Part shown: piece after piece, positions 1 to 46,682 of the stretch
How the letters are laid out: each line of letters begins with the position of its first letter
Numbering within the stretch: position 1 is the first letter of the stretch
Source: a virus
Lineage: Duplodnaviria > Heunggongvirae > Uroviricota > Caudoviricetes
Virus record (IMG/VR): IMGVR_UViG_2737471818_000007
Length of the DNA: 47,226 nt
Strand: one strand, 5' to 3'
Notes under the pieces: model-generated
The model's database searches: none
Told to the model about the DNA's origin: nothing
The model's input: the letters and a program-made list of their open reading frames with translations, nothing else
Position numbers and translations under genes: made by a program

Positions 1-582
1 TTACTCTGCAGGTGAAGTCGGCCACTCAATATCAGGTGCAGTTGATGTATCAACACGGTTCAGCAATACCCGATACTTCTTCCAGGCTTCCAGCAACGAG
101 GTTTCTTCCTCCGTTGCAATTTCCAGATCTGCAGCATCCTGAAGTGGCGCAATATGCTCACTGGCTACCTGCATCAGGCTTTTTTTTGTTTCTTCCGCCT
201 CCCGGATCCGGAACAGTTTTTCTGCTTCCGTATCCTTCACCCAGGCTGTGCCGTTCCACTTCTGATATTCCCCTCCCGGCGATAACCAGGTAAAATTTTC
301 CGGTAACGGACCGAGTTCAGAAATAAATAACGCGTCGCCGGAAGCCACGTCATAGACGGTTTTACCCCGATGGTCTTCAACGAGATGCCACGATGCCTCA
401 TCACTGTTGAAAACAGCCACAAAGCCAGCCGGAATATCTGGCGGTGCAATATCGGTACTGTTTGCAGGCAGACCGGTATGAGGCGGAATATATGCGTCAC
501 CTTCACCAATAAATTCATTAGTTCCGGCCAGCAGATTATAAATTTTTATGGTCCGTGGTTGTTCACTCATTCTGAATGCCAT
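1..582 (-). CDS. tfa: tail fibre assembly protein (Tfa-like)
   Basis: 193-aa ORF with stop at 1-3; its ATG (580-582) overlaps the stf stop (TAATG); resembles lambda Tfa (recalled, not searched). Confidence 0.85.
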
Positions 583-26762: not shown

Positions 26763-27056
26763 ATAATTAAATATGTTGCATTAAGATGACGTTCCGCCCC
26801 ATAACACCCTGATATTCACCTAACTCGCCATGAAATCAGAACGCCATCTGAATACACAGAAAAAAGCTGGCTTTACACCACCCTGCATGTGAACGCAGAA
26901 CTCACCCCACCACGTGCTTTCGCAACCAGCACACAATCTGTGTCAAAAACTGGCAGATGAGCAATGAAACTGCCAGTGCGGTCACCTGTCTTAGTTCGCA
27001 TCGCTAATTCTGCGTGATAACAAGCTTTTCGTTCTTATCTTATTGTGCACTCCTGG

Positions 27057-28106
27057 TTAACCCGCCTGCTCCATTATTTCACCAACGGTCTGTTCAAAAC
27101 GTTCTTTTTCCAGTTCCACGCCAGTCGCCCTGCGTCCCAGTGACAGTGCCGCTTTTATTGTCGCCCCCGACCCCATAAAAAAATCGGCAACCAAATCACC
27201 GGGGCGACTGCTGGCCTCAATTATCTGCCGCAACATATCGGCTGGTTTTTCACAGGGATGTTTGCCCGGATAATACTGCACGGGCTTGTGCGTCCAGACA
27301 TCCGTATACGGAACGGCAACTGATACGGAAAAATAACGCCGCAGGGATTTGTACTCCTTCAGCAGGCTGGCATATTGCCGGTTCAGTTCACTGTATGTGC
27401 TGACCAGCTGGTGGTGTGGCTTTTCCAGTTCCCCGCGTTGATGTTTTTCTGCTGCAACACGCGCAAACAACGCCTGTAATTTCAGATAATCACCTTCGTT
27501 CGGCAACTGCCACTGACTGATACCAAACCAGTGCGAAGCCATGTTTTTCTTTCCGGTGGCTTCCGCTATCTGTTTTGACGTTATTCCCAGTGATTCACGC
27601 GCATCACGAAAGTAAGAAATCAGCGGGGCCATGACGTGCTGTTTTAGCTCGCTCCCCTTTGCCGCATAGCCGTCATTTTTGGGCCGGTATGGCCCCTGAT
27701 AATGTTCTGCAAACAGAATGCGTTCTGTTGCCGGGAAATACGCCCGCAGGCTTTCCTTGTTGCATCCGTTCCAGCGTCCGGACGGCTTCGCCCAGATAAT
27801 GTGGTTCAGCACATTAAAGCGCTCACGCATCATGATTTCGATATCAGATGCCAGGCGATGACCACAGAACAGGTAGAGACTTCCGGCAGGTTTCAGTACC
27901 CGCCAGAACTGCGCCAGACACTGTTCCAGCCATTTCAGGTAATCATCGTCGCCCTTCCACTGGTTATCCCAGCCCTCGGGCTTCACTTTAAAGTATGGCG
28001 GGTCTGTGACTATCAGATCGACTGAGTTTTCCGGTAAGGTCTGGATAAATTCCAGGCAATCAGCGTTGATTAACTCACAACTGGATATTTTTACAGTATT
28101 AACCAT
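27057..28106 (-). CDS. DNA methyltransferase, beta-class N6-adenine/N4-cytosine type
   Basis: 349-aa ORF with ATG at 28106; motif IV DPPY near the N-terminus (LIVTDPPYF) and motif I FxGxG near the C-terminus (DFFMGSGAT). Confidence 0.8.
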   Translation of the reverse strand: MVNTVKISSCELINADCLEFIQTLPENSVDLIVTDPPYFKVKPEGWDNQWKGDDDYLKWLEQCLAQFWRVLKPAGSLYLFCGHRLASDIEIMMRERFNVLNHIIWAKPSGRWNGCNKESLRAYFPATERILFAEHYQGPYRPKNDGYAAKGSELKQHVMAPLISYFRDARESLGITSKQIAEATGKKNMASHWFGISQWQLPNEGDYLKLQALFARVAAEKHQRGELEKPHHQLVSTYSELNRQYASLLKEYKSLRRYFSVSVAVPYTDVWTHKPVQYYPGKHPCEKPADMLRQIIEASSRPGDLVADFFMGSGATIKAALSLGRRATGVELEKERFEQTVGEIMEQAG

Positions 28107-28256
28107 AGATCAATAAGCACTTCTCTGATAGGCTCATACCGCTTTTGCGCAAAGCAGATGGGCCTGAGGTTTGCTTGTGACCCCAAAGCATGAGCAGATG
28201 GCTGGCAGGTGCCGCTAACACCCACCAGCCGCCCATTACCACAAATTAAAAAGCCT

Positions 28257-28454
28257 TCACTGCGGAAGGCGTCTGTAACAACCGAACTGATAATCTGCCA
28301 GACCCGCCATAACAAGCTGAGTCAGTATTAACTGGCAGCGTTCGCGTGAAAGGTAAGTATTCTGCGCAATTTCCCCGACGGTCGCCGGTTCGGTGACGCG
28401 TAATTCATTAAAAACCACTCTGGCGGTTTCGGTCATATCCTGCTGTTTTAGCAT
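28257..28454 (-). CDS. small putative winged-helix DNA-binding protein
   Basis: Track ORF 28257..28634 trimmed to the ATG at 28454 (MLKQQDMTETARVVFNELRVTEPATVGEIAQNTYLSRERCQLILTQLV..., 65 aa); upstream of the methyltransferase on the same strand; function inferred only. Confidence 0.45.
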   Translation of the reverse strand: MLKQQDMTETARVVFNELRVTEPATVGEIAQNTYLSRERCQLILTQLVMAGLADYQFGCYRRLPQ

Positions 28455-28576
28455 GTCTTTTTCCCTTTTCCGGTTAACGTGACATACCAATAACTCTTGT
28501 CGAAAAAGCCAGCAAGCTGAAAGACTGGTATTCGTAACCACCAGCGCGTTTAACGTACTGTACCACTTTTCGGGCA

Positions 28577-28603
28577 CAAAAAACCCGCTCGGCGGCGGGT
28601 TTA
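28577..28603 (-). terminator. putative rho-independent terminator
   Basis: Minus strand AACCCGCCGCCGAGCGGGTT followed by TTTTTGTG. Confidence 0.4.
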
Positions 28604-28713
28604 GGCTGTGTGGCGAAGCGACTATCCTTAACACAATACAATAGTTTTTGCGTACGCGTTAATGATTTTGTAAAATTAATTGATGGGTTGATTTTAAAAC
28701 AAGGATATATTAT

Positions 28714-30117
28714 ATGGCTCGTAAAGATTTCACTCAGCAAATAGACATTCCAATTCAAAATATCCTCCTCGATACTGAAAATGCCAGAATCCGCGCAGGT
28801 AGAGATCAAAACAACTGCATTTCAAGGATATTGCGTAAAGAAAACCAGATGCTTGTATTGATGGAGGATATTGCAGAAAACGGACTTACAACCATGCCCA
28901 TATTGGTTATGCCTCACTCAGAAGGTAAATGGGTAGTTAAAGATGGTAATAGACGAATAACAGCTTTAAAACTATTAAATAACCCAGATAGTTGCCCGGA
29001 ACCACATTTAATTCCGAAAATAAAAAAAATAAAAGAAAAATATCATGACAACATACCTACTACTGTTGACTGTTTATCAAGTGACAATTTTGAAGCAGTA
29101 TTTAAAGAGATAATAGCAAGGCATTCTGGAGCACGTAATGGTGCTGGTCAATATGACTGGTTTGCATATATGCGAACAATTTATCTATTAAATAATGGAC
29201 ATCCAACTGATTATAAAAGAGCTGGTCAATATATGTGTTGGGCTGAACAAGAAGGCATTGATGTAGATGATGATTTCCCAATCACTAGTGTAGCCAGATT
29301 CTTTACTAGAGATAATCTTCTATTGTTAGGATTTGAAGTGGAAAATGATAAATTGAAGCCAATACTCTCAAAAGAAAAAATAATAAAAATGGCCTCAAAA
29401 ATTAATAGCGACTTTTCTTCAAAAATAGTTGATGTTAACACCGTCTTTAATCCTAGCGATGCAAAGAAATATCTTTGCTCGGTAAGAAAATATGCAGGAA
29501 TAATAGATGATTTTGCTTACAATAGTGATGACACAGAACAAGAAAATAATAAAAAAGAAGAAACAAATAAATGTTCCTCTCCATCTGAAGTGGATAACAA
29601 TAATGCGCAATCAGATAGTAAGAGTGACGCACCTGTACTACTAAAAAAACACGCAGGTAGAGGAGGTACACCTAAAAAAATACCAGCAGAGCGAAATAAA
29701 ATTTTTGGTAGAGGAAAGCCTGGAATTACTATTCCTGAAAATGAGACTAAAATAAGAACTATAATCTCAGAACTTAGGCAATTAGATGTAAAAAAAACAA
29801 CTCTTGCAACTGCATTTCTTCTTCGGGCACTGCTGGAGTTAAGTGATAAAGAATATAGAACAATTAACAAGTTGCAAGATAAAAAAAGCTTAGCTAAAAA
29901 TATTGCTAATAGCGCAGATCATATGTTGAAAAATAATCTAATCACTGACTCAGAACACCATATAATATCAGCTTATACTCGCGGCGAGCAAGGAACTGTG
30001 CACATTGAAACTTTACAAAAATTAATTCACAGAGAGACACATCACCCAGATTATATCTCAATTAATGTTTTTTGGGACAATATAGGTTGTTTTGTTCGAG
30101 CTTGTTGGAAAGATTAA
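28714..30117 (+). CDS. ParB/Srx-fold (DGxRR motif) N-terminal domain protein, unknown function; candidate nuclease or defence protein
   Basis: 467-aa ORF with ATG at 28714; N-terminus has ParB-like motifs (ILLDTENARIR; GLTTMPILVMP; VVKDGNRRITALKLL); Lys-rich low-complexity linker; His-rich C-terminal domain; very AT-rich. Confidence 0.65.
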   Translation: MARKDFTQQIDIPIQNILLDTENARIRAGRDQNNCISRILRKENQMLVLMEDIAENGLTTMPILVMPHSEGKWVVKDGNRRITALKLLNNPDSCPEPHLIPKIKKIKEKYHDNIPTTVDCLSSDNFEAVFKEIIARHSGARNGAGQYDWFAYMRTIYLLNNGHPTDYKRAGQYMCWAEQEGIDVDDDFPITSVARFFTRDNLLLLGFEVENDKLKPILSKEKIIKMASKINSDFSSKIVDVNTVFNPSDAKKYLCSVRKYAGIIDDFAYNSDDTEQENNKKEETNKCSSPSEVDNNNAQSDSKSDAPVLLKKHAGRGGTPKKIPAERNKIFGRGKPGITIPENETKIRTIISELRQLDVKKTTLATAFLLRALLELSDKEYRTINKLQDKKSLAKNIANSADHMLKNNLITDSEHHIISAYTRGEQGTVHIETLQKLIHRETHHPDYISINVFWDNIGCFVRACWKD

Positions 30118-30163
30118 AATAATATACCACGCTGGACTAATTTATTAGTCCAGCGTACAGTTT

Positions 30164-31018
30164 TCATTTCTTCTTCATAGAGGGAGTGCTATGAATATTT
30201 AAATTTTTATATACCATAAGTTCTGTAACTCTTGGCCTTGTCAAATGAGTTGAGTAATGTAAAGAAAACTCCACAATTTTTTCGTCTTTATATAACTTCC
30301 TGATTTCTTCACAATTATCATATGTAACAATTATCGGAGTGGAAATATCCTTAACCTTTTCAGAAATTAATTTATGATCATGAGGTTTATAATGATTTCT
30401 ATAAAGCTGGCTACCTTTTTCATAATATGGAGGATCAAGATAAATTAGAGATTTTTTTGGTAGTGTATTTTTTATACTACCAATCAACTCACAGGCATCC
30501 AAATTATAAAGATCAATAAATTTTTTCATTCCACCTATTTTTTTTACTCTTTCACATAGTTTCTTCTTATTATACCTAGCATCAATCTTATATTTACCAC
30601 TCTGTTCTTTTCCTCCTATAACCCCACCTGATAAGATTCCAGAACGATTGGTTCGATTGAGAAAAAACGTAGCAAAACCAATAGATAAAATATCATGTTT
30701 AGTATAATTGTTTATTACATCTTTTTGCTTATACCAATTATCCATTGTTACTTCTGTTTCATTTATCAATGAAATAAATTTATCATTCTCATTTAACACT
30801 GACCACCAAAATGAGTAAACAACAGGATCCAAATCATTAATAATGACATGATCTACATATCCATGCATTAGCAAATACAATGCAGCTCCTGCGCCGCCAG
30901 CATATGGCTCCACATAATACCCACCACTAATTCCGTTATACCTCAGCAGTTCTGATATCCAAGGCCCCATCCTCCCTTTTCCACCGGGATAACGTAATGG
31001 GGTAAAAAATGTAGTCAT
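30164..31018 (-). CDS. DNA adenine methyltransferase, D12 (Dam-like) class
   Basis: Track ORF 30164..31054 trimmed to the ATG at 31018 (MTTFFTPLRYPGGKGRM..); motifs YPGGK, VEPYAGGAG, FLNRTNRSG, YLDPPYY parallel E. coli Dam; AT-rich; convergent with the ParB-like gene. Confidence 0.8.
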   Translation of the reverse strand: MTTFFTPLRYPGGKGRMGPWISELLRYNGISGGYYVEPYAGGAGAALYLLMHGYVDHVIINDLDPVVYSFWWSVLNENDKFISLINETEVTMDNWYKQKDVINNYTKHDILSIGFATFFLNRTNRSGILSGGVIGGKEQSGKYKIDARYNKKKLCERVKKIGGMKKFIDLYNLDACELIGSIKNTLPKKSLIYLDPPYYEKGSQLYRNHYKPHDHKLISEKVKDISTPIIVTYDNCEEIRKLYKDEKIVEFSLHYSTHLTRPRVTELMVYKNLNIHSTPSMKKK

Positions 31019-31105
31019 GCTGAACCTCATACAAAACCAGGAAATTAAATGCATTTTACCCTAAATCACATCAATTCTAAATAACTAAATTAACAGTATT
31101 AAAAT

Positions 31106-33682: not shown

Positions 33683-34168
33683 TTAGTTTTGCTGTTCTAT
33701 TTTAAGCTTGATAGTTTCATACAAAACAATAGTTGCGCCTGTTTTACATAATTCCCGACTGTCATACGCACGAGACCAATAACACAACCAATTTTCAAGC
33801 TCTTCTCGTGTATAAATTTTACAGGCCAGCCCCTCAGCCATCTCTACAACTTCATCGCCTGGCGCGGTTAATTCGTATCCATTTAACAATAAAAAAACCG
33901 CACCAGCCATCATTGCTGTGCGCTTGTTTGCATTGGCAAATGGATGATTCTGAATCAGACTTTCAATCAATACCGATGCCAGTACAAACATGTCGTTGGT
34001 TTGCTCATACCATCGAACCATACTGGGACGAGACTGAGAAGAACTTAAATTATCAACACTCAGCACACCAACAGGTTCATCTGGTGTTTGAAGCTCAATT
34101 AAAAGGCGATTGATTTCAGTAAGATCATCAACCGAGAGGTAGTGCACTCCTTCAACAATCTCAGCCAT
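33683..34168 (-). CDS. Fic/Doc-family toxin (Doc-like)
   Basis: Track ORF begins at TTG 34177, ATG at 34168; contains HPFANANKRTA matching the Doc motif HxFx(D/N)(A/G)NKR. Confidence 0.75.
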   Translation of the reverse strand: MAEIVEGVHYLSVDDLTEINRLLIELQTPDEPVGVLSVDNLSSSQSRPSMVRWYEQTNDMFVLASVLIESLIQNHPFANANKRTAMMAGAVFLLLNGYELTAPGDEVVEMAEGLACKIYTREELENWLCYWSRAYDSRELCKTGATIVLYETIKLKIEQQN

Positions 34169-34186
34169 AGAGCACAATACCCATCA

Positions 34187-34576: not shown

Positions 34577-34732
34577 TTACTCCTCAGATTCGTAAGCTGT
34601 GAAGACAGCGACCTCCGTCTGGCCGGTTCGGATTCGTACCTCGCAGAGGTCTTTCCTCGTTACCAGTGCCGTCACTATGACGGTTAAACAGATGACGATC
34701 AGGACGATTAACATCGCCTTTTGCTGCTTCAT
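34577..34732 (-). CDS. hok: Hok/Gef-family type I toxin
   Basis: 51-aa ORF MKQQKAMLIVLIVICLTVIVTALVTRKDLCEVRIRTGQTEVAVFTAYESEE, classic Hok; below the ORF-track size cutoff. Confidence 0.85.
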   Translation of the reverse strand: MKQQKAMLIVLIVICLTVIVTALVTRKDLCEVRIRTGQTEVAVFTAYESEE

Positions 34733-34790
34733 AGCCTGCTTCTCCTTGACCTTTCGGTCCGTAAGAGGCTAACCTACATGTGTCTAGCAT
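34584..34790 (-). CDS. mok: Mok-like overlapping reading frame (translational coupling for hok)
   Basis: 68-aa ORF in another frame, starting upstream of hok and ending inside it, as in the R1 hok/mok/sok locus. Confidence 0.55.
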   Translation of the reverse strand: MLDTCRLASYGPKGQGEAGYEAAKGDVNRPDRHLFNRHSDGTGNEERPLRGTNPNRPDGGRCLHSLRI

Positions 34791-34986
34791 GAAATTGGCC
34801 TCAGATTAATGTTAAGCGTCTTGCAGGACGCGTAATGTTAACTAGGGCTTTTCTCTATCTGCCTTTGGTGTTCATGCCTGAGGCAGATAGCCTCAAGCAC
34901 CCGCAGCAATTCTACTTAAGTTAGATAAGCTTTTCTATGGTATTCTCTCAGCGTCCCGTAAATACAGTCTCGGCTCATCATTTTTA

Positions 34987-35250
34987 TCACAGGTGCGAGG
35001 AAAATATATAGCGCCCTCCATCAAGCATAACGAAATACATTTTCCATTCATCGCCATTCCTCAATTTAATACGAAGACTTTCCCCGCAAGTGTATTTATT
35101 AAACAACTGTTCCGATGTGCTAGTAAGAGGTATTTTTACCGTTATTACAACTACTGCCCCACCATTTAACTCTCGAAGTTCAGCATCCGCATCCACAAAA
35201 GATGAATAAATGTTATGATCTGGGTAATCAACAATTAACTGCATATTCAC
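34987..35250 (-). CDS. hypothetical protein
   Basis: 87-aa ORF; no family recognised. Confidence 0.4.
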   Translation of the reverse strand: MNMQLIVDYPDHNIYSSFVDADAELRELNGGAVVVITVKIPLTSTSEQLFNKYTCGESLRIKLRNGDEWKMYFVMLDGGRYIFSSHL

Positions 35251-38837: not shown

Positions 38838-39857
38838 TTACCCCCTGAACCCCGGCGGAATTTCGGTGTCCGGCTCGGAAATGTGATTCACGCAACGCTG
38901 CGCGGGACCACGCCACAGTCGAATCACCAGTTCATCCCATTTTTCACGGAGTTTTGACGGGCTCTTGATGTTTTTTATCCAGAACGGATCCCGTTGTGCC
39001 CGACTAAACATTTCGCAAATTTGCCTGTGAGTTCTGCCGTCAAGCACCCGCATCATGCGCACGTCATTGGCCCACTCTGTCCAGTTAGGTTCTTTAGGAC
39101 GCGTGATCTCGCCATCATCGCTGGCAGCCTGTTCGTAAAGACTGACAACTCGCCCCCAAATCCACTGAGCGCATGCCAAATCTTCCTGGGTTCCCCACCG
39201 ACTTTTTTTCGCACTGAACACAACCGCGTCAGGATGTCGGGTTAAAAAATCCGGTTCAGTCGTCTGCGGGTCCGGTTGCGAAGCTTCCGGACGAAAAGTG
39301 TTTTTATTCTCTGTAGTAATCTCTGTTGTATTCTCTGTAAGATCATCAGGCCATTTTGACCCGATGACATTGGGTCGTTTTGAACCAATGGAGCGTTTCA
39401 TTTTGACCTCTTCCATCGTGTCATTTTGACCTGATGGAGCGGCGCATTTTGAACCGATGGATTCGTTCAATTTGCCACCATCTAAAAGCTCGCTCCCATA
39501 GTTGATCGTGTAGAAATTGGTCATATCGCGCTTTGATTTATTGAGCTTTTCACAACGCAAAAGCCCCAGCGTTTTCAGACTTGCAAACGCGCGCTTTAAC
39601 GTTGACTCTGACCAGAATGGGAACTGTTCCAGCCATTGTTCCGTTGTGTTATAAATCCAGCGAACACCATCACATTCCATACCGGAGTTGGTATCTCTCA
39701 ACCAGTAGTGCAGTTGTTGCAAAACAATGGCTTCGTTTAAGCCGATTCTCATTGCCAGCTGCGTGTTTATAACCAGTGGGCGTTCAGCAAAAAGAAGGCT
39801 CATAATTCCATCCAGCTTTTTGTTGGTATTGCTGTCGATACGCAAGTTTGAAAGCAA
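38838..39857 (-). CDS. replication initiator (O-like) containing the origin iterons
   Basis: 339-aa ORF; N-terminus ..MSLLFAERPLVINTQLAMRIGLNEAIVLQQLHYWL typical of phage replication initiators; the true start may be the ATG at 39803. Confidence 0.75.
   Translation of the reverse strand: MLSNLRIDSNTNKKLDGIMSLLFAERPLVINTQLAMRIGLNEAIVLQQLHYWLRDTNSGMECDGVRWIYNTTEQWLEQFPFWSESTLKRAFASLKTLGLLRCEKLNKSKRDMTNFYTINYGSELLDGGKLNESIGSKCAAPSGQNDTMEEVKMKRSIGSKRPNVIGSKWPDDLTENTTEITTENKNTFRPEASQPDPQTTEPDFLTRHPDAVVFSAKKSRWGTQEDLACAQWIWGRVVSLYEQAASDDGEITRPKEPNWTEWANDVRMMRVLDGRTHRQICEMFSRAQRDPFWIKNIKSPSKLREKWDELVIRLWRGPAQRCVNHISEPDTEIPPGFRG
39350..39480. repeat. origin-like iterons inside the O-like gene
   Basis: Five to six direct repeats of the form CATTTTGA(A/C)C(C/T)(G/A)ATGG at ~22-25 bp spacing, encoding repeated SIGSK peptides; as in lambda ori. 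Confidence 0.65.
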
Positions 39858-40305
39858 TTGCTTTTTCTATAAGTTCGTCAGTTTCACGATCCACTACGGC
39901 AGGATCAGCAAAAAGCAGTCCGGACTCCACCACATCGCCATATTCTTTGTTTAACCCGGCGATCATGTACGTGATGCTTTTTCCGTCACTAATTTCACGA
40001 TACAATCTGAAATCATTAATCCGGATAGCCTCCATAATTGCAGGCACTAGCGCCGTGAACTTTTCACGCTTATCCCTGGTGTCGATAGCCTTCCAGCGTT
40101 CGAATATCTTCACTCGATTAACGCCAAGCGCTCGCTGATCAACCGCGCCACCTTCATCTGTGACACGCTGAACATCGATGTTCGGGCGCTCTTTCAAAGC
40201 CCAGAATGCTTCAGTGATTAATATCGTCGCCTGCTCCTGTGTCATTCCTAGTCGACATATCCAGGCATCCAGAGCCTCACGAGCCTGTTCAGGAGTGATT
40301 TTCAT
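39784..40305 (-). CDS. hypothetical protein at the cII position (YdaT-like?)
   Basis: 173-aa ORF between the cro-like dicC and the O-like gene; family assignment uncertain. Confidence 0.5.
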   Translation of the reverse strand: MKITPEQAREALDAWICRLGMTQEQATILITEAFWALKERPNIDVQRVTDEGGAVDQRALGVNRVKIFERWKAIDTRDKREKFTALVPAIMEAIRINDFRLYREISDGKSITYMIAGLNKEYGDVVESGLLFADPAVVDRETDELIEKAIAFKLAYRQQYQQKAGWNYEPSFC

Positions 40306-40519
40306 TGTTCAACCGCCCCGCCCGCTTCGTCTTACGATATTCGTCATAAACCTTGGGATCATACTGAAGCTCGCCGCCAGATGCCTCCTGTAGACGCATC
40401 GCGCGATCTTCGGGAACTAAATCCCCTTTCCAGCTATAAAGCGAAGCCAAACGAATACCTGCTGCTTGTGCAAGTTTTGTTTTTGAACCGAAATACAAAA
40501 GAGCGTCAGTTTTAAGCAT
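40289..40519 (-). CDS. dicC: DicC, Cro-like regulator
   Basis: 76-aa ORF MLKTDALLYFGSKTKLAQAAGIRLASLYSWKGDLVPE.. matching Qin DicC (recalled); divergent from dicA. Confidence 0.85.
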   Translation of the reverse strand: MLKTDALLYFGSKTKLAQAAGIRLASLYSWKGDLVPEDRAMRLQEASGGELQYDPKVYDEYRKTKRAGRLNNENHS

Positions 40520-40602
40520 TTAAAACACCTTGATTGTTAGCCATGACTAACAAAATAGATGTTAACAAAAACATAGTCAATACGATTTAGCATTAGCTAA
40601 CT

Positions 40603-41010
40603 ATGGATACAAAAAATTTAACTATCGGCGAACGCATTAGGTATCGTCGGAAAAACCTCAAACACACCCAAAGGTCTCTTGCTAAAGCCCTGAAAATCTC
40701 CCATGTGTCTGTATCACAATGGGAACGGGATGATAGTGAACCTACAGGGAAGAACCTTTTTGCCCTCAGCAAAGTATTGCAATGCTCACCAACATGGATT
40801 CTATTTGGCGATGAAGACAAGCAACCAACACCACCTGTTGAGAAGCCAGTTGCCTTATCTCCCAAAGAACTAGAGCTCCTTGAGCTGTTTAATGCACTGC
40901 CAGAATCAGAACAGGATACCCAGCTCGCCGAAATGCGAGCTCGAGTAAAAAACTTCAATAAACTCTTTGAAGAATTACTAAAAGCCCGTCAGCGGACAAA
41001 TAAAAGATAA
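40603..41010 (+). CDS. dicA: DicA, HTH-XRE repressor (CI-like)
   Basis: 135-aa ORF MDTKNLTIGERIRYRRKNLKHTQRSLAKALKISHVSVSQWER.. matching Qin DicA (recalled). Confidence 0.9.
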   Translation: MDTKNLTIGERIRYRRKNLKHTQRSLAKALKISHVSVSQWERDDSEPTGKNLFALSKVLQCSPTWILFGDEDKQPTPPVEKPVALSPKELELLELFNALPESEQDTQLAEMRARVKNFNKLFEELLKARQRTNKR

Positions 41011-41176
41011 CATCATCAATGAGTTATCTTTTACCACATCAATTATGTTAGTCATAACATACAAAACCACTTGACCAATATGTTAGTCATGACTAATCTT
41101 GTTTGCATCAACACACCGCACGGTGTTCTCAGCAAACCGTTCCGCTACCCCAGCGTTAAGGGGAAATGAGGTCAAC

Positions 41177-41332
41177 ATGGATACTATCGATCTTGGCAAC
41201 AACGAATCTCTGGTATACGGCGTGTTCCCAAACCAGGACGGCACGTTCACCGCAATGACGTATACCAAAAGCAAATCGTTTAAAACCGAATCTGGCGCGC
41301 GTCGCTGGCTGGAAAGAAATTCAGGTGAGTGA
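41177..41332 (+). CDS. ydfA: YdfA (DUF1391)
   Basis: Track ORF 41099..41332 trimmed to MDTIDLGNNESLVYGVFPNQDGTFTAMTYTKSKSFKTESGARRWLERNSGE (51 aa). Confidence 0.75.
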   Translation: MDTIDLGNNESLVYGVFPNQDGTFTAMTYTKSKSFKTESGARRWLERNSGE

Positions 41333-41333
41333 T

Positions 41334-41462
41334 ATGGATTTCGACGCAATCATGAAAAAGGCTTATGAAGAATACTTCGAAGGCCTTGCCGAAGGCGAAG
41401 AAGCTCTCAGCTTCGGTGAGTTTAAACAGGCGCTTTCCAGTTCGACAAAATCTATCGACTAA
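41334..41462 (+). CDS. ydfB: YdfB-like small protein (42 aa)
   Basis: ATG 2 nt after the ydfA stop; MDFDAIMKKAYEEYFEGLAEGEEALSFGEFKQALSSSTKSID; below the track cutoff. Confidence 0.6.
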   Translation: MDFDAIMKKAYEEYFEGLAEGEEALSFGEFKQALSSSTKSID

Positions 41463-41473
41463 CGGGGTTAAAG

Positions 41474-41632
41474 ATGGAATTTAAAGATTTACCTCCAGAC
41501 ACTCAGAAAATCGCCGCAGAAACACTGAAATCTCTCATTTTGAACGGGGAGACAGAAAAGGTAGAGCCAGCTAAAAAACTGGCTCAAGAAATCAGAGAAG
41601 CCTTTATTGCTCTTTATCAGTCTTCTCCATAG
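41474..41632 (+). CDS. YdfC-like small protein (52 aa)
   Basis: MEFKDLPPDTQKIAAETLKSLILNGETEKVEPAKKLAQEIREAFIALYQSSP; below the track cutoff; in-operon position. Confidence 0.5.
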   Translation: MEFKDLPPDTQKIAAETLKSLILNGETEKVEPAKKLAQEIREAFIALYQSSP

Positions 41633-42099
41633 CGGCTTGTTTTTCTTCTTTTAATATATTGCGAATTGTAATAACTGAATTAGCCGCCTCTGAAGGGGAT
41701 GACATTTTGCCAGCCCGAATTAACTCAACTGTTAAGTTCAAAGCTGCAACAGATGGATAGGTAAATGGGTTAATTAACTTGTCTGACATTTTATCCTCCA
41801 TTGAGGTTCTGAGTTAAAAATGGAGACCAACACGCAGCCACATGTGGTCATGCGCCGGACACGGATAAGAATCCGGCACTGACAGTTTACTGAAAGGATA
41901 TATCACTGAAAAATCAGGGCATAACGCGAAAGCGCACGGCGAAGTTCGTCTCACTGTACGGTGTCGTTAAATTTAATTCGACCGTGCGCTTCCGGTTGTG
42001 GCACTCCGCGAAATGGCGCGGCGGTACGTATGGCGGGGTTATTCCTTCCCCCTGTTGAGGACACCGGGTTGTCAGGTTGACCATACGCCTGAGTGACAA

Positions 42100-42175
42100 C
42101 CCCGCTGCAACAACCCATGTTGATTACCTTTTGGCGGCATCAGTTTCATTGCTGGCTGATGTCCGTCCTTTTTAA
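42100..42175 (+). ncRNA. dicF: DicF-like small RNA (divergent variant)
   Basis: Located upstream of dicB; TTTGGCGGCATCAGTTTCATTGCTGGCTGATGTCCGTCCTTTTT (hairpin plus U-run) followed by the TAAAGTGAATTTTGTGATG.. sequence that I recall flanking K-12 dicF; the core differs from K-12 dicF. Confidence 0.4.
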
Positions 42176-42356
42176 AGTGAATTTTGTGATGCGGTGAATG
42201 CGGCTCAGCGCACGCGGAACAGTTAAAAAGGCCAGTTGACTTCCGTATTGGTTCTTATGGGTGGGTTCTCTGTATCCGGCGTTAATTGTTAACTGGTTAA
42301 CGTCACCTGGAGGCACCAGGCACCGCATCACAAAATTCATTGTTGAGGACGCGATA

Positions 42357-42539
42357 ATGGAAACGTTATTACCAAACGTCAATACGTCTGAAGGTTGTTT
42401 TGAAATTGGTGTCAGAATCAGTAACCCTGTATTTACTGAAGATGCCATTAATAAGAGAAAACACGAACGGGAGCTATTAAATCAAATATGCATTGTTTCA
42501 ATGCTGGCCCGTTTACGCCTGATGCAAAAAGGACGCTGA
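42357..42539 (+). CDS. dicB: DicB cell-division inhibitor
   Basis: Track ORF 42261..42539 trimmed to the ATG at 42357 after GAGGA; METLLPNVNTSEGCFEIGVRISNPVFTEDAINKRKHERELLNQICIVSMLARLRLMQKGR. Confidence 0.9.
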   Translation: METLLPNVNTSEGCFEIGVRISNPVFTEDAINKRKHERELLNQICIVSMLARLRLMQKGR

Positions 42540-42541
42540 CA

Positions 42542-42745
42542 ATGAATACAGCATTTGCACTCGTTCTGACAGTTTTTCTTAATACAGGCGAACCAGTCGA
42601 TCTTGTTATTGGTATACATGACTCAATGAAAGAATGCATGGCTGCCGCAGCGGAACAGAAAATTCCCGGCAACTGTTATCCGGTTGATAAAGTTATTCGC
42701 ATGGACAATAACGAAATCCCGGCAGGACTTAAAACAGCACCGTAA
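42542..42745 (+). CDS. ydfD: YdfD-like protein
   Basis: Track ORF 42488..42745 trimmed to MNTAFALVLTVFLNTGEPVDLVIGIHDSMKECMAAAAEQKIPGNCYPVDKVIRMDNNEIPAGLKTAP; starts 3 nt after the dicB stop. Confidence 0.7.
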   Translation: MNTAFALVLTVFLNTGEPVDLVIGIHDSMKECMAAAAEQKIPGNCYPVDKVIRMDNNEIPAGLKTAP

Positions 42746-42825
42746 TTAATATCCGGTTTCATTTTTATATGCCAGCAATGGCAGGGATTTGTTCACCCTT
42801 AAATCTGTAATGAGGTTAAAACAAA

Positions 42826-45264
42826 ATGAGTAAAGTCTTTATTTGCGCCGCCATTCCGGACGAACAGGCAATAAAGGAAGAAGGTGCAGTCGCTGTAGCC
42901 ACTGCCATTGAAGCCGGCGACGAACGCCGCGCCCGTGCCAAATTTACCTGGCAATTCCTGGAGCAATATCCGGCTGCTCAGGACTGCGCTTATAAATTTC
43001 TTGTTTGCGAGGATAAACCCGGCATGCCCCGCCCTGCCATCAACTCCTGGGATACCGAATATATGCTGGAAAACCGCTGGGATGAAGAGTCAGCCTCTTT
43101 TGTCCCGATCGAACCAGAATCCGATCCGATGAACGTCAATTTTGACAAGCTGTCCCTTGAAGTACAGAACGCGGTCCTGGTTAAGTTCGGTACATGTGAA
43201 AACATCACCGTTGATATGGTGATTAGTGCACAGGAATTGTTGCAGGAGGACATGGCAACATTCGACGGGCATATCGTTGAGGCATTGATGAAAATGCCTG
43301 AAGTTAACGTCATGTATTCAGAACTAAAGCTGTTCGCCATCGGGTGGGTTAAACATAAATGTAAGCCGGGTGCAAAATGGCCTGAGATCCAGACAGAATT
43401 ACGCACCTGGAAAAAACGTCGCGAAGCCGAACGCAAAGAAACCGGGAAATACACGTCTGTTGTTGATCTTGCCCGCGCCAGAGTCAACCGGCAGCACACT
43501 GAAAACTCAGCAGGAAAAATCAACCCCGCCACTGCCGCCATTCGTCGCGAATACAAGCAGACATGGAAAACGCTGGATGAAGAACTGGCCTACGCTCTGT
43601 GGCCTGGCGATATTAATGCCGGAAACATTGACGGCAGCATCCATCGCTGGGCAAAAAATGAAGTTATCGACAAAGATCGCGAAGACTGGAAGCGCATTTC
43701 CGCATCAATGCGCAAACAACCCGATGCCGTCCGCTACGACCGTCAGACTATTTTTGGCCTTGTCCGTGAGCGTCCGATCGACATTCACAAAGATCCCGTG
43801 GCACTGAACAAATACATCACTGAATACCTGGCGACAAAGGGCGTGTTTGAGGATGAAGAAACAGACCAGAACACTGCTGATATTCTCCAGCCGTCAGCAG
43901 CACAAACTGATGCAGTGGAAACTGAAGTATCTGATACCCAAAAAAATGAAAGCACGCTGGAAACTGAACCATCTGTAGAGCGTGAGGGGCCGTTCTACTT
44001 CCTTTTCACCGATAAGGATGGCGAAAAATATGGTCGTGCAAACAAACTTTCTGGTCTGAATAAGGCGCTGGCTGCAGGGGCTACTGAAATCACGAAAGAA
44101 GAATATTTTGCCCGCAAAAACGGCACATACTCAGGTTCACAACAAAATACTGGTGCATCTGACACGATCGCACAACCAGAGCCGGTAAAAGTTACCGCTG
44201 ACGAAGTAAACAAAATTATGCAGGCAGCCAATATCAGCCAGCCTGACGCCAATAAGTTGCTTGCTGAATCACGTGGTGAATTTGTTGCAGGGATTAGCGA
44301 CCCGAATGATCCGAAATGGGTGAAGGGGATTGAAACCCGCGATTCAGTGAATCAGAACCAGCAAGAAACGGAACAGAACGACCAGAAAGCGGAACAAAAC
44401 AGCCCAAATGCGCAACAGGAGCCGGAAAAAGCCTGCACCGCCTGCGGTCAGACCAGCGGCGGCAACTGCCCTGATTGTGGTGCGGTGATGGGCGACGCAA
44501 CGTATCAGGAAACCTTTAATGAAGAAAATCTGGATGAATCTCAGGAAAAAGATCCGGAGGAAATGGAAGGCGCTGAACATCCACACAAGGAGAATGCTGG
44601 CAGCTATCAGGACCACGCCAGCGATAGCGAAACTAGCGAGACGGCAGATCCCTTAATTGCGGTGAACGGTCATCACGTTATCACATCCACCAGCAGAGTG
44701 TGGTACCACCTGATGATCGACCTTGAAACGATGGGTAAAAAAAGTAATGCCCCCATCGTGGTTATTGGTGCTGTGTTCTTCGATCCGCAGACCGGGGAAA
44801 TCGGGCCAACATTTTATATCGTTATCAGCCTGGTTGACGCTATGGACACGGGTGCTGTTCCTGATGGTTCCACCATCGAATGGTGGCTTGCTCAGTCCAG
44901 CGAAGCCAGATCTGCAATTTTAGTTGATCAGGTAAAACTGGTTGACGCTCTTATTCAATTTCGGGAATTCATCAATGAGTACTCGGATGAAAAATTCGTT
45001 CAGGTATGGGGCAATGGTGCAACTTTCGACAACACTATTTTACGAACCTCGTACGAACGCCTGAACATCCCCTACCCGTGGCGTTACTACAACGATCGCG
45101 ATGTACGTACAATCGTTGAACTGGGAAAAACTATCGGCTTCGATGCCAGAACAGTTATTCCATTTGAAGGCGTGCGCCACCATGCGCTGGATGATGCCCG
45201 TCACCAGGCGAAATACGTTACAGCCACGATACAAAAACTGATCCCGAATCAGGCTGATTTTTAA
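42826..45264 (+). CDS. large protein with C-terminal DEDDh 3'-5' exonuclease domain and a Cys4 zinc ribbon
   Basis: 812-aa ORF; C-terminus has Exo I (MIDLETMG), Exo II (VWGNGATFDNTIL) and Exo III (HHALDDARHQAKY) motifs; CTACGQTSGGNCPDCG zinc ribbon; sits in the recombination-module position. Confidence 0.75.
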   Translation: MSKVFICAAIPDEQAIKEEGAVAVATAIEAGDERRARAKFTWQFLEQYPAAQDCAYKFLVCEDKPGMPRPAINSWDTEYMLENRWDEESASFVPIEPESDPMNVNFDKLSLEVQNAVLVKFGTCENITVDMVISAQELLQEDMATFDGHIVEALMKMPEVNVMYSELKLFAIGWVKHKCKPGAKWPEIQTELRTWKKRREAERKETGKYTSVVDLARARVNRQHTENSAGKINPATAAIRREYKQTWKTLDEELAYALWPGDINAGNIDGSIHRWAKNEVIDKDREDWKRISASMRKQPDAVRYDRQTIFGLVRERPIDIHKDPVALNKYITEYLATKGVFEDEETDQNTADILQPSAAQTDAVETEVSDTQKNESTLETEPSVEREGPFYFLFTDKDGEKYGRANKLSGLNKALAAGATEITKEEYFARKNGTYSGSQQNTGASDTIAQPEPVKVTADEVNKIMQAANISQPDANKLLAESRGEFVAGISDPNDPKWVKGIETRDSVNQNQQETEQNDQKAEQNSPNAQQEPEKACTACGQTSGGNCPDCGAVMGDATYQETFNEENLDESQEKDPEEMEGAEHPHKENAGSYQDHASDSETSETADPLIAVNGHHVITSTSRVWYHLMIDLETMGKKSNAPIVVIGAVFFDPQTGEIGPTFYIVISLVDAMDTGAVPDGSTIEWWLAQSSEARSAILVDQVKLVDALIQFREFINEYSDEKFVQVWGNGATFDNTILRTSYERLNIPYPWRYYNDRDVRTIVELGKTIGFDARTVIPFEGVRHHALDDARHQAKYVTATIQKLIPNQADF

Positions 45265-45325
45265 TGTTCAACCGTCGCCAGTTGTAGTTGGTATTCTGCA
45301 ACTGGCGCGTTCCGGAGTGATAACC

Positions 45326-45595
45326 ATGAGCGAACAGTACCTGATAACGCTCGATGAGTGGAAACCCAAACGGTTCAGTCTCCCAATAACAAACACTACC
45401 CTGGTGAAATACGGAAAACTTGGATACATCGTACCAAGACCACAAAAAATTCGTGGACGTTGGCTGATAGATCGCCGGGCAGTATTTGTTGGACCTGGTG
45501 AAACGGGAATTGCGCCGGAAATTCATACTGGCGATGATGATGCACTGAAGGAGATTTTAACTCATGTCACCGAGGCCACGAAAAAACAGCACTGA
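45326..45595 (+). CDS. excisionase-like protein
   Basis: Track ORF 45317..45595 trimmed to MSEQYLITLDEWKPKRF..; small basic protein immediately upstream of and overlapping int. Confidence 0.6.
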   Translation: MSEQYLITLDEWKPKRFSLPITNTTLVKYGKLGYIVPRPQKIRGRWLIDRRAVFVGPGETGIAPEIHTGDDDALKEILTHVTEATKKQH

Positions 45596-46682
45596 CGTAG
45601 CCGGTCTTTACGAAAAGTTTGATCGCAGAACTGGCAGAGTTTACTACCAGTATAAAAACCCTGTGACTGGAAAATTTCACGGACTCGGAACAGACAAAGG
45701 CAAAGCTGAAAGAATCGCTTCCACAGCCAATCAGCGAATAGCTGCAGCAGAAGCCGAATATTTCATGCGCAAAATTGATGAAAGTCCATCAGCAACAAAA
45801 CGTCGGGGTATCAGATTAAAGGCATGGGTTGATCGATATCTGAAAATACAGGACACGCGACTGAAAAATGGAGATATTGCAGCTACAACTCACAAAGAAA
45901 AAACTCGAATGGCTGCATACCTGGTTTCCCGTCTGGGAAACCACCCATTGAAAGAACTGGAAGTAAGAGACTTTGCATTAATACTGGATGAGTGGCTGGA
46001 TAAAGACATGGTCAGCACAGCGAGAGTAAATCGTGGATTATGGGTTGATATTTATAAAGAAGCACAGCATGCAGGGGAAGTTCCTCCTGGATGGAATCCT
46101 CCGGAGGCTACCCGTAAACCGATCCCTAAAGTAACCAGAGCCAGACTCACCCTGGAAGACTGGCAAAAAATTTACAACGCAACGCCTGAAAAACACTTTA
46201 TCCGTAACGCAATGCTTCTTGCGATTGTTACTGGTCAGCGCCGTGATGACATTTGCCATATGCGTTTTTCAGATGTGTGGAACGAACACCTGCATATTAC
46301 CCAGGGAAAAACTGGAATGCGTCTGGCGTTACCGCTGACGCTACGCTGTGATGCCATTGGGATATCGCTAAAAGAAGTGATTGATGGATGCAGGGACAGA
46401 ATATTGAGTCCATACCTGATTCATAGTCGGCACCAAAAACAACCAAAACCAATGAGTAAAGACAACCTGAGCGATTACTTTGCCAAAGCGCGGGAGCTGG
46501 CTGGAATAATTCCACCAGCAGGAAAAACTCCGCCAACATTTCATGAACAACGTTCTCTATCAGAACGGCTGTACCGTGCACAGGGTATCGATACAAAAAC
46601 ATTACTGGGACATAAAGTCCAGGCAACCACCGATCGTTATAACGATACTCGTGGTCAGGAATGGGTTAAATTGGTTGTTTGA
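45564..46682 (+). CDS. int: tyrosine integrase (lambda Int family)
   Basis: 372-aa ORF with ATG at 45564; C-terminal catalytic region ..TLLGHKVQATTDRYNDTRGQ.. including the conserved tyrosine context. Confidence 0.9.
   Translation: MSPRPRKNSTDVAGLYEKFDRRTGRVYYQYKNPVTGKFHGLGTDKGKAERIASTANQRIAAAEAEYFMRKIDESPSATKRRGIRLKAWVDRYLKIQDTRLKNGDIAATTHKEKTRMAAYLVSRLGNHPLKELEVRDFALILDEWLDKDMVSTARVNRGLWVDIYKEAQHAGEVPPGWNPPEATRKPIPKVTRARLTLEDWQKIYNATPEKHFIRNAMLLAIVTGQRRDDICHMRFSDVWNEHLHITQGKTGMRLALPLTLRCDAIGISLKEVIDGCRDRILSPYLIHSRHQKQPKPMSKDNLSDYFAKARELAGIIPPAGKTPPTFHEQRSLSERLYRAQGIDTKTLLGHKVQATTDRYNDTRGQEWVKLVV

Follow-up and report, generated by a model that had tools for sequence, protein, structure and literature searches.

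DicF is a textbook prophage small RNA (sRNA), known for its RNase E-generated 5' end, its binding to Hfq and the filamentation caused by its overexpression. Prophage sequences related to dicF were reportedly described by Faubladier and Bouche in 1994 (J Bacteriol 176:1150), in work that is known here through citing papers only and that probably concerned the same family of loci as the one considered below. In Escherichia coli K-12, where RNase III generates a 72-nucleotide (nt) form of the RNA, DicF pairs through its 3' part with the ribosome-binding site (RBS) of ftsZ and with pykA, and through its 5' end with xylR (PMC5069750). The published survey of dicF took in only copies more than 99% identical to the K-12 sequence (PMC5069750). 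The present analysis concerns the dicF slot of IMG/VR virus record IMGVR_UViG_2737471818_000007, a stretch of 47,226 nt that is referred to as the window throughout. A preliminary description had proposed that a Qin-type dicC/dicA immunity switch and a ydfABC-dicF-dicB-ydfD operon are joined here to lambda-type structural genes, with a divergent dicF. Comparison with K-12 and with other prophages identifies the element in this slot as a positional homologue of dicF that keeps the predicted terminator architecture and the surrounding scaffold, but that by its sequence falls outside the DicF family and is without the known pairing regions of DicF.

The replacement of dicF sequence is sharply bounded. 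Between a leader that is 86% identical to K-12 and a downstream part that is 97-98% identical, the cassette at positions 42112-42168 is only 56% identical and carries a 10-nt deletion. The expectation that the region keeps its flanks and diverges within was therefore correct; the divergence is not limited to the core and terminator stem, as had been supposed, since the whole cassette has been swapped, including the 5' arm, the hairpin loop and the 3' side, in the form of a discrete and recurrent allele. Its first 21 nt (42112-42132, plus strand), termed arm B and reading AACCCAUGUUGAUUACCUUUU, are predicted to be unpaired and stand in the alignment where the K-12 arm including UUUCUGGUGACG would be. 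Arm B carries an anti-start CAU and an anti-Shine-Dalgarno (anti-SD) CCUUU, 8 nt apart. It is followed at 42133-42173 on the same strand by a GC-rich hairpin of 13 base pairs (bp), GGCGGCAUCAG-UUUCAUUGCUGG-CUGAUGUCCGUCC, and five U residues (minimum free energy -18.3 kcal/mol), together a predicted intrinsic terminator that presumably forms the 3' module of an sRNA; a consensus scan places a terminator-like site at 42136-42163 with the tail CGTCCTTTTT. The cassette thus has the position of DicF, upstream of dicB in a long untranslated region (the dicB start lies 184 nt downstream), and its terminator hairpin with U tract. At the Rfam gathering score (48 bits) no DicF match (RF00039) is found in the window; with permissive filters, 42118-42168 reaches 28.6 bits (E 0.0011), whereas K-12 dicF scores 76.7 bits. 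The proposed check, that the region should fold into or score as DicF, is accordingly answered in two ways, as the hairpin forms but the covariance score stays well below threshold, and the complementarity to the ftsZ RBS and the pairing with xylR and pykA are missing as well.

Pairing energies were calculated with ViennaRNA as hybridisation plus opening energy, and potential targets were ranked in a panel made up of the translation start regions of 75 K-12 genes, among them those of the dcw cluster, xyl, man and pykA. The K-12 sequence is a fair proxy for the ftsZ target, because in 5310 of 5425 complete E. coli genomes this start region shows at least 99% identity. For canonical DicF, the scheme recovered the published duplex, in which sRNA nt 26-53 pair with ftsZ positions -29 to -1 (hybrid -26.7, total -8.1 kcal/mol), and a dinucleotide-shuffle control gave a z-score of -1.96. 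For the window allele, the best ftsZ site overlapping the RBS has a total of +8.2 kcal/mol. An altered ftsZ seed, which had been raised as a possibility, is borne out by these predictions and more strongly than stated: the best hybrid with ftsZ weakens from -26.7 kcal/mol in the canonical allele to -15.1 kcal/mol, a value equalled or bettered by 95% of dinucleotide shuffles. In the panel, ftsZ falls from rank 8 with the canonical allele to 59 with that of the window, pykA from 2 to 51 and xylR from 1 to 20. The sequences that pair with ftsZ, pykA and xylR are gone, and the predicted pairing is at or below background. No displaced anti-ftsZ-RBS segment was found at 41600-42360, where only background GC-rich matches occur that K-12 has too.

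Two candidate targets of other kinds were considered and rejected. The longest complementarities within the phage itself, of 13 nt (26960-26972) and 11 nt (35223-35233), are on the plus strand of regions whose genes run on the minus strand, and they were discarded because the mRNAs there have the same sense as the sRNA. Host ftsB, suggested by AUGGGU in the complement of the arm, does not match in its upstream sequence.

The distribution of the cassette was surveyed by scanning IMG/VR with the conserved flanks and then with arm B, and species-representative genomes with the downstream flank; counts in 5426 complete E. coli genomes refer to at least 80% query coverage. A series of alleles emerged. 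Allele A, with the canonical arm and canonical hairpin, was found in 3973 genomes, and allele B, the cassette of the window together with its G-C or G-U stem variant, in 83 (1.5%); E. coli EC11 and ARS-C101 are examples of strains with this allele. Allele C, in which arm B precedes an unrelated hairpin (GGCGGGUAUC...GAUACCCGCC), occurs in 157 genomes (2.9%), including Shiga toxin-producing E. coli (STEC) O121. Alleles D and E combine the canonical arm with other hairpins, and alleles F, G and H combine other arms with a B-like stem, the loops of F and H also resembling that of B. Only A exceeds the Rfam DicF threshold; D reaches 43.5 bits, G 39.1, F 34.7, and H and B 28.6 each, and C-type cassettes have no Rfam DicF match at E<=1. 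In IMG/VR, arm B is present in 67 contigs with two main hairpin types, and the cassette of the window in about 25; contig UViG_2737471870_000001 has the same arm-B cassette. The cassette is a recurrent minority allele and not a one-off decay product.

All main allele classes fold into a hairpin followed by a U tract, with minimum free energies from -15.8 to -23.8 kcal/mol, and their inner stems differ (CAUCAG/CUGAUG, GUAUC/GAUAC and UAUCAG/CUG); rarer single-base variants fold more weakly, down to -12.3 kcal/mol. The cassettes reassort with the upstream module, which may be ydfC, a 52-amino-acid open reading frame (ORF) or neither, as well as with the downstream modules and the immunity type. 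One isolated phage, vB_Apl-pPE4 (PP818812.1), carries the arm-B/hairpin-C cassette and its flank in tandem duplicate (locus L187, 1395-1580), upstream of kil and not of dicB. This phage is recorded on Actinobacillus, yet its cassette region is E. coli-prophage-like. No record in the phage collection has the window's B cassette at 80% coverage or more, and the exact arm-B string has no match in the species-representative genomes of GTDB. In a further set of loci from E. coli, E. ruysiae and Shigella flexneri, made up of survey loci L190 and L191 and related ones, a third upstream sequence (…GUAAAUAACGACAUUGCUGUGUG…) is joined to a B-like stem; one of them shares an 8-kb locus with RalA RNA, and another has isrK and C4 antisense RNAs within about 300-400 nt downstream. 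In RefSeq E. coli, no annotated feature lies under the canonical cassette among the matches listed (6 of 3984 records), nor under the variant cassettes among theirs. A missing dicF annotation was rejected as evidence, as the NCBI Prokaryotic Genome Annotation Pipeline (PGAP) leaves canonical copies unannotated too.

The best explanation of these observations, to which a probability of about 0.5 is assigned, is that the window carries a non-canonical dicF allele in a PL-like early-left operon, which terminates transcription and yields a retargeted sRNA. In the proposed sequence of events, DicA would repress the early-left operon as in Qin, as suggested by the near-identical proteins and control regions, and derepression would allow transcription through ydfA, ydfB, a small ORF and a structured leader into the cassette at 42112-42173. 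Most transcripts would end at the hairpin and be trimmed to an RNA of about 55-62 nt resembling an Hfq-binding sRNA, in which CAU and CCUUU of the arm would block the site of translation initiation on a target mRNA. Transcripts that read through would be cut in a conserved 20-bp stem and would then express dicB, ydfD and the exonuclease, excisionase and integrase genes. Inhibition of host division would in that case depend on DicB, which is intact, and not on RNA silencing of ftsZ, but only if the cassette terminates and retargets as proposed. A broader version, offered tentatively, holds that the dicF slot houses a swappable sRNA cassette within a conserved scaffold made up of the leader, the terminator and the RNase III stem, that canonical DicF is only its commonest allele, and that the B and C alleles are distinct Hfq-type sRNAs aimed at other host or phage mRNAs.

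Several results weigh against a retargeted sRNA. No convincing target of the window allele was found among the 75 K-12 start regions, and the best arm matches in that sample (ispD, kdgR and yobB) look generic to start regions. The energies themselves come from a simplified in-house scheme and not from IntaRNA. A 14-nt deletion destroys the hairpin at two IMG/VR loci, which indicates that the element can decay, and sequences of the B class vary too little for selection on the arm or loop to be demonstrated.

It is quite possible, if short of probable, that the cassette serves solely as an intrinsic terminator and processing element with no role in trans, in which the ftsZ-directed sequence was never acquired or has been lost. 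Nearly all allele classes have the outer GGCGG/CCGCC stem and the U tract in common, the loops vary between classes, and C-type cassettes go unrecognised by the DicF model at E<=1; a simple terminator would also fit the hairpin-destroying deletions and the failure to find a target among the 75 start regions and in the phage genome. However, the alleles recur as discrete forms with sharp boundaries and not as products of gradual drift, and the layout of anti-SD and anti-AUG motifs in the arm is typical of sRNA seeds. Because arm B is unchanged on two unrelated hairpins and similar stems are found with several arms, the modules appear to be preserved as units, and the tandem duplicate in an isolated phage also counts against this reading. 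Continued down-regulation of ftsZ by the variant, through a site other than the canonical one, is improbable. Two 9-bp matches in the ftsZ coding region are its best sites, one between the loop GUUUCAUUGC and CCAAUGGAACU in codons 4-7 (+10 to +20; -9.9 kcal/mol) and one between the arm UUGAUUACCU and CGGUGAUUAAA at +32 to +42 (-9.7 kcal/mol), but after opening costs their totals are only -1.5 and -1.4 kcal/mol, matches of such length are expected by chance, and both the rank of ftsZ in the panel and the shuffle control given above speak against regulation. A minus-strand 55-amino-acid gene running through the leader (41951-42118), for which arm B would supply the RBS and start codon (AAAAGG-N8-ATG opening a 55-codon frame, with a weak match to the C-terminus of phrog_3651), is effectively refuted, as the frame is not conserved: it stops after 9 codons in 25 of the 67 arm-B loci, shifts in others to unrelated tails of 25-134 amino acids and meets an in-frame TAA in K-12, and it has neither a PGAP call nor a Pfam match.

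A further prediction concerns the C-type allele, whose loop CGUUUUUUGUUUUCCCUUGU pairs with K-12 ftsA at +4 to +25 (hybrid -18.0, total -12.9 kcal/mol), the best score among the 75 start regions. This predicted pairing may be due to chance.

The cassette lies in a scaffold that is better conserved than the cassette itself. Upstream lies a structured untranslated leader of about 260 nt (41851-42111, plus strand), 86% identical to K-12 overall and about 95% identical over its last 150 nt or so. Its fold has a z-score of -3.45, and among the 64 pairs of the consensus structure 4 show compensatory changes; the long central hairpin is wholly or mostly gone in two natural variants. The leader has no Rfam match at E<=10, and it may act as a processing scaffold or an antitermination element, both of which are ideas only. 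Downstream, identity to K-12 is 97% in the 37 nt that follow the cassette and 98% in the final 101 nt ahead of dicB. This spacer contains an STnc100-like element (42177-42340, plus strand; 33.7 bits against a gathering score of 47) closed by a perfect 20-bp stem between GUGAAUUUUGUGAUGCGGUG (42177-42196) and CACCGCAUCACAAAAUUCAU (42321-42340), and the region 42105-42362, which forms this long stem, folds with a z-score of -6.04. The dicF-dicB spacer also stays below the STnc100 threshold in K-12 and in other alleles (29.9-39.1 bits). By analogy with the processing described for K-12 (PMC5069750), the 20-bp stem is probably the RNase III site for the longer DicF form.

The surrounding immunity region is of the Qin type, as had been proposed. 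The span originally delimited, 40289-42745, is exact, running from the dicC stop on the minus strand to the ydfD stop. By BLAST, 40026-41460 is 97.2% identical to K-12 Qin at the nucleotide level and covers a YdaT-family gene, dicC, dicA, ydfA and ydfB; 41851-42999, from the leader through the dicF slot, dicB and ydfD into the beginning of the exonuclease gene, is 86.0% identical; and 41461-41850 has no homology to the K-12 Qin region. The Cro-type regulator gene dicC (40289-40519, minus strand) encodes a product identical to K-12 DicC at 75 of 76 residues (P22_Cro, 46.4 bits) and diverges from the repressor gene dicA (40603-41010, plus strand; 133 of 135 residues identical, HTH_3 58 bits). 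The control region between them (40520-40602), within the 97%-identical block, contains the palindrome TGTTAGCCATGACTAACA, a putative operator in the light of what is known of DicA. DicA consists of a helix-turn-helix domain only and is without a peptidase or autocleavage domain, so induction probably proceeds through an antirepressor and not through RecA-mediated cleavage. On the far side of dicC, a gene of the YdaT family (39784-40305, minus strand; 173 amino acids, Pfam YdaT_toxin) is identical at 90 of 93 positions to the retained part of K-12 YdfX, the 96-amino-acid K-12 protein being a truncated remnant of the gene seen here.

The dicB operon follows dicA on the plus strand. Its promoter region (41011-41176), 97% identical to K-12, contains two repeats, TGTTAGTCAT(A/G)AC, at about 41046-41062 and 41079-41097, which are candidate operators. 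Next come ydfA (41177-41332; DUF1391, PF07151 97 bits; 49 of 51 residues identical to K-12) and ydfB (41334-41462; 36 of 40 identical, phrog_2061). Beyond the leader and the cassette, dicB (42357-42539) encodes a protein identical to K-12 DicB at 54 of 60 residues, in which the PF05358 match spans residues 1-59 (127.5 bits against a cut-off of 27) and identifies it as DicB, and ydfD (42542-42745; DUF1482, PF07358 80.9 bits) has 46 of 63 identical residues. The description of these proteins as matching Qin nearly residue for residue does not hold for YdfD, which is only 73% identical. The operon also differs from the proposed ydfABC-dicF-dicB-ydfD order in that ydfC is absent. In its position, a 52-amino-acid ORF (41474-41632, plus strand; phrog_9419, E 1e-21) shows no meaningful alignment to K-12 YdfC and no nucleotide homology to K-12, and a convergent or antisense ORF of 61-65 amino acids (61 at 41604-41789, minus strand) matches phrog_17494 (E 1e-7) and is annotated by PGAP as WP_001305873.1 in E. 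coli ARS-C101. The two ORFs share 29 nt at the 3' end of the 52-amino-acid frame. The antisense gene sits inside the early-left operon, and the ydfC-slot span 41474-41801 also contains a minus-strand terminator-like hairpin at 41585-41564.

The remainder of the early-left operon (42826-46682, plus strand) comprises an 812-amino-acid exonuclease (42826-45264, plus strand; phrog_2082), an excisionase (about 45326-45595, plus strand) and an integrase (45564-46682, plus strand), the last two named after the PGAP annotation of their ARS-C101 counterparts. A full lambda-type morphogenesis block occupies positions 1-23078 on the minus strand, which confirms that lambda-type structural genes are joined to a Qin-type early region. 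Its gene order is terminase Nu1/A, W, portal, S49 protease, D, E, FI, FII, Z, U, V, G/T, tape measure, M, L, K, I, J, lom, side tail fibre and tfa, a complete and collinear set as in a lambda-like siphovirus module. These genes had been called apparently intact, and indeed every ORF is full-length, with coordinates that correspond one for one to PGAP genes in a 99.2%-identical prophage of E. coli ARS-C101. Closely related copies of the prophage, that of ARS-C101 among them, lie in the potB/potC interval, and in ARS-C101 both junctions carry a 12-nt repeat, TTTTGGAGAAAG. The block is 93% identical to phage lambda over 41% of its length, and about 50% of it is covered by mEp460 at 85%. Integrase, excisionase, replication, Q, lysis, head and tail genes of a temperate phage are all present, so that the gene content of the prophage looks complete. 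The characterisation as an intact relative of Qin is supported as regards gene content but not as regards novelty, since isolated phages already carry this combination of a Qin-type early region with a lambda-type virion, a mosaic that is known and not new.

Other cargo is found elsewhere in the window. Defence-type genes lie between the lysis genes and Q (27057-31054): a type II N6/N4 methyltransferase (27057-28106, minus strand), PD-Lambda-5 A (28714-30117, plus strand; E 3.5e-74) and PD-Lambda-5 B, a D12-class methyltransferase (30164-31054, minus strand; E 3.5e-115). The interval between the terminase genes and dicC is several kb shorter in ARS-C101 than in the window, and this cargo may therefore be absent there. 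A hok/sok type I toxin-antitoxin locus consists of a sok RNA (108 bits, 34730-34902) and a hok-like ORF (34577-34732), with a Fic/DOC-domain gene nearby (33683-34177), and an Rfam IS009 RNA (225 bits; 41-239, minus strand) lies within the tail-fibre assembly gene.

A genome that has a 'dicBF operon' need not, for that reason alone, control ftsZ at the RNA level. If the minority cassettes are functional, prophages would be able to give a host-directed sRNA a new target through the exchange of some 60 nt within a fixed scaffold, and annotation at Rfam thresholds would miss such RNAs; if the cassette is only a terminator, the locus would represent the ordinary mosaicism of a lambdoid prophage. 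No description of natural non-canonical dicF alleles or of the arm sequence was found in the literature searched, although the 1994 work on dicF-related sequences lay outside this search and a prior description is possible.

Compared with K-12 DicF, the cassette occupies the same slot of the same operon, is of similar length and shares the leader, the outer terminator stem with its U tract, and the RNase III-type stem and dicB downstream; it differs in an unrelated 5' arm that is 10 nt shorter and in a loop that does not carry the anti-SD CUCCG. The other alleles of the slot (C to H) have the same scaffold and the same modular series of arm, hairpin and U tract. Allele C, with its GGGUAUC hairpin (STEC O121 and vB_Apl-pPE4), has the arm of the window, and D, G and H have its stem, whereas their loops or arms differ from those of the window and their Rfam DicF scores extend from 43.5 bits to no match. 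In relation to the K-12 Qin dicA-dicC/dicBF region, gene order is retained, DicA, DicC, YdfA and the control regions share 97% nucleotide identity and DicB is 90% identical, but the ydfC slot holds two unrelated small ORFs and YdfD is the more divergent protein noted above. The locus also belongs here to a prophage in which the modules for replication, lysis, head, tail and integration are complete, and the K-12 remnants ydfX and ydfE correspond to full-length genes. The isolated phages mEp460, PhiR42_1, HannyBb and Tritos similarly combine a dic-type early-left operon (dicB/dicF) with lambda-like tails. PhiR42_1 covers 84% of the locus described here at 91.6% identity, mEp460 matches in the tail block, and the record of Tritos annotates a 'DicF antisense sRNA, inhibits ftsZ' under its match. 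Against this background, the immunity switch and the dicB operon were already known, and the divergent cassette represents a variant form of a familiar class of element.

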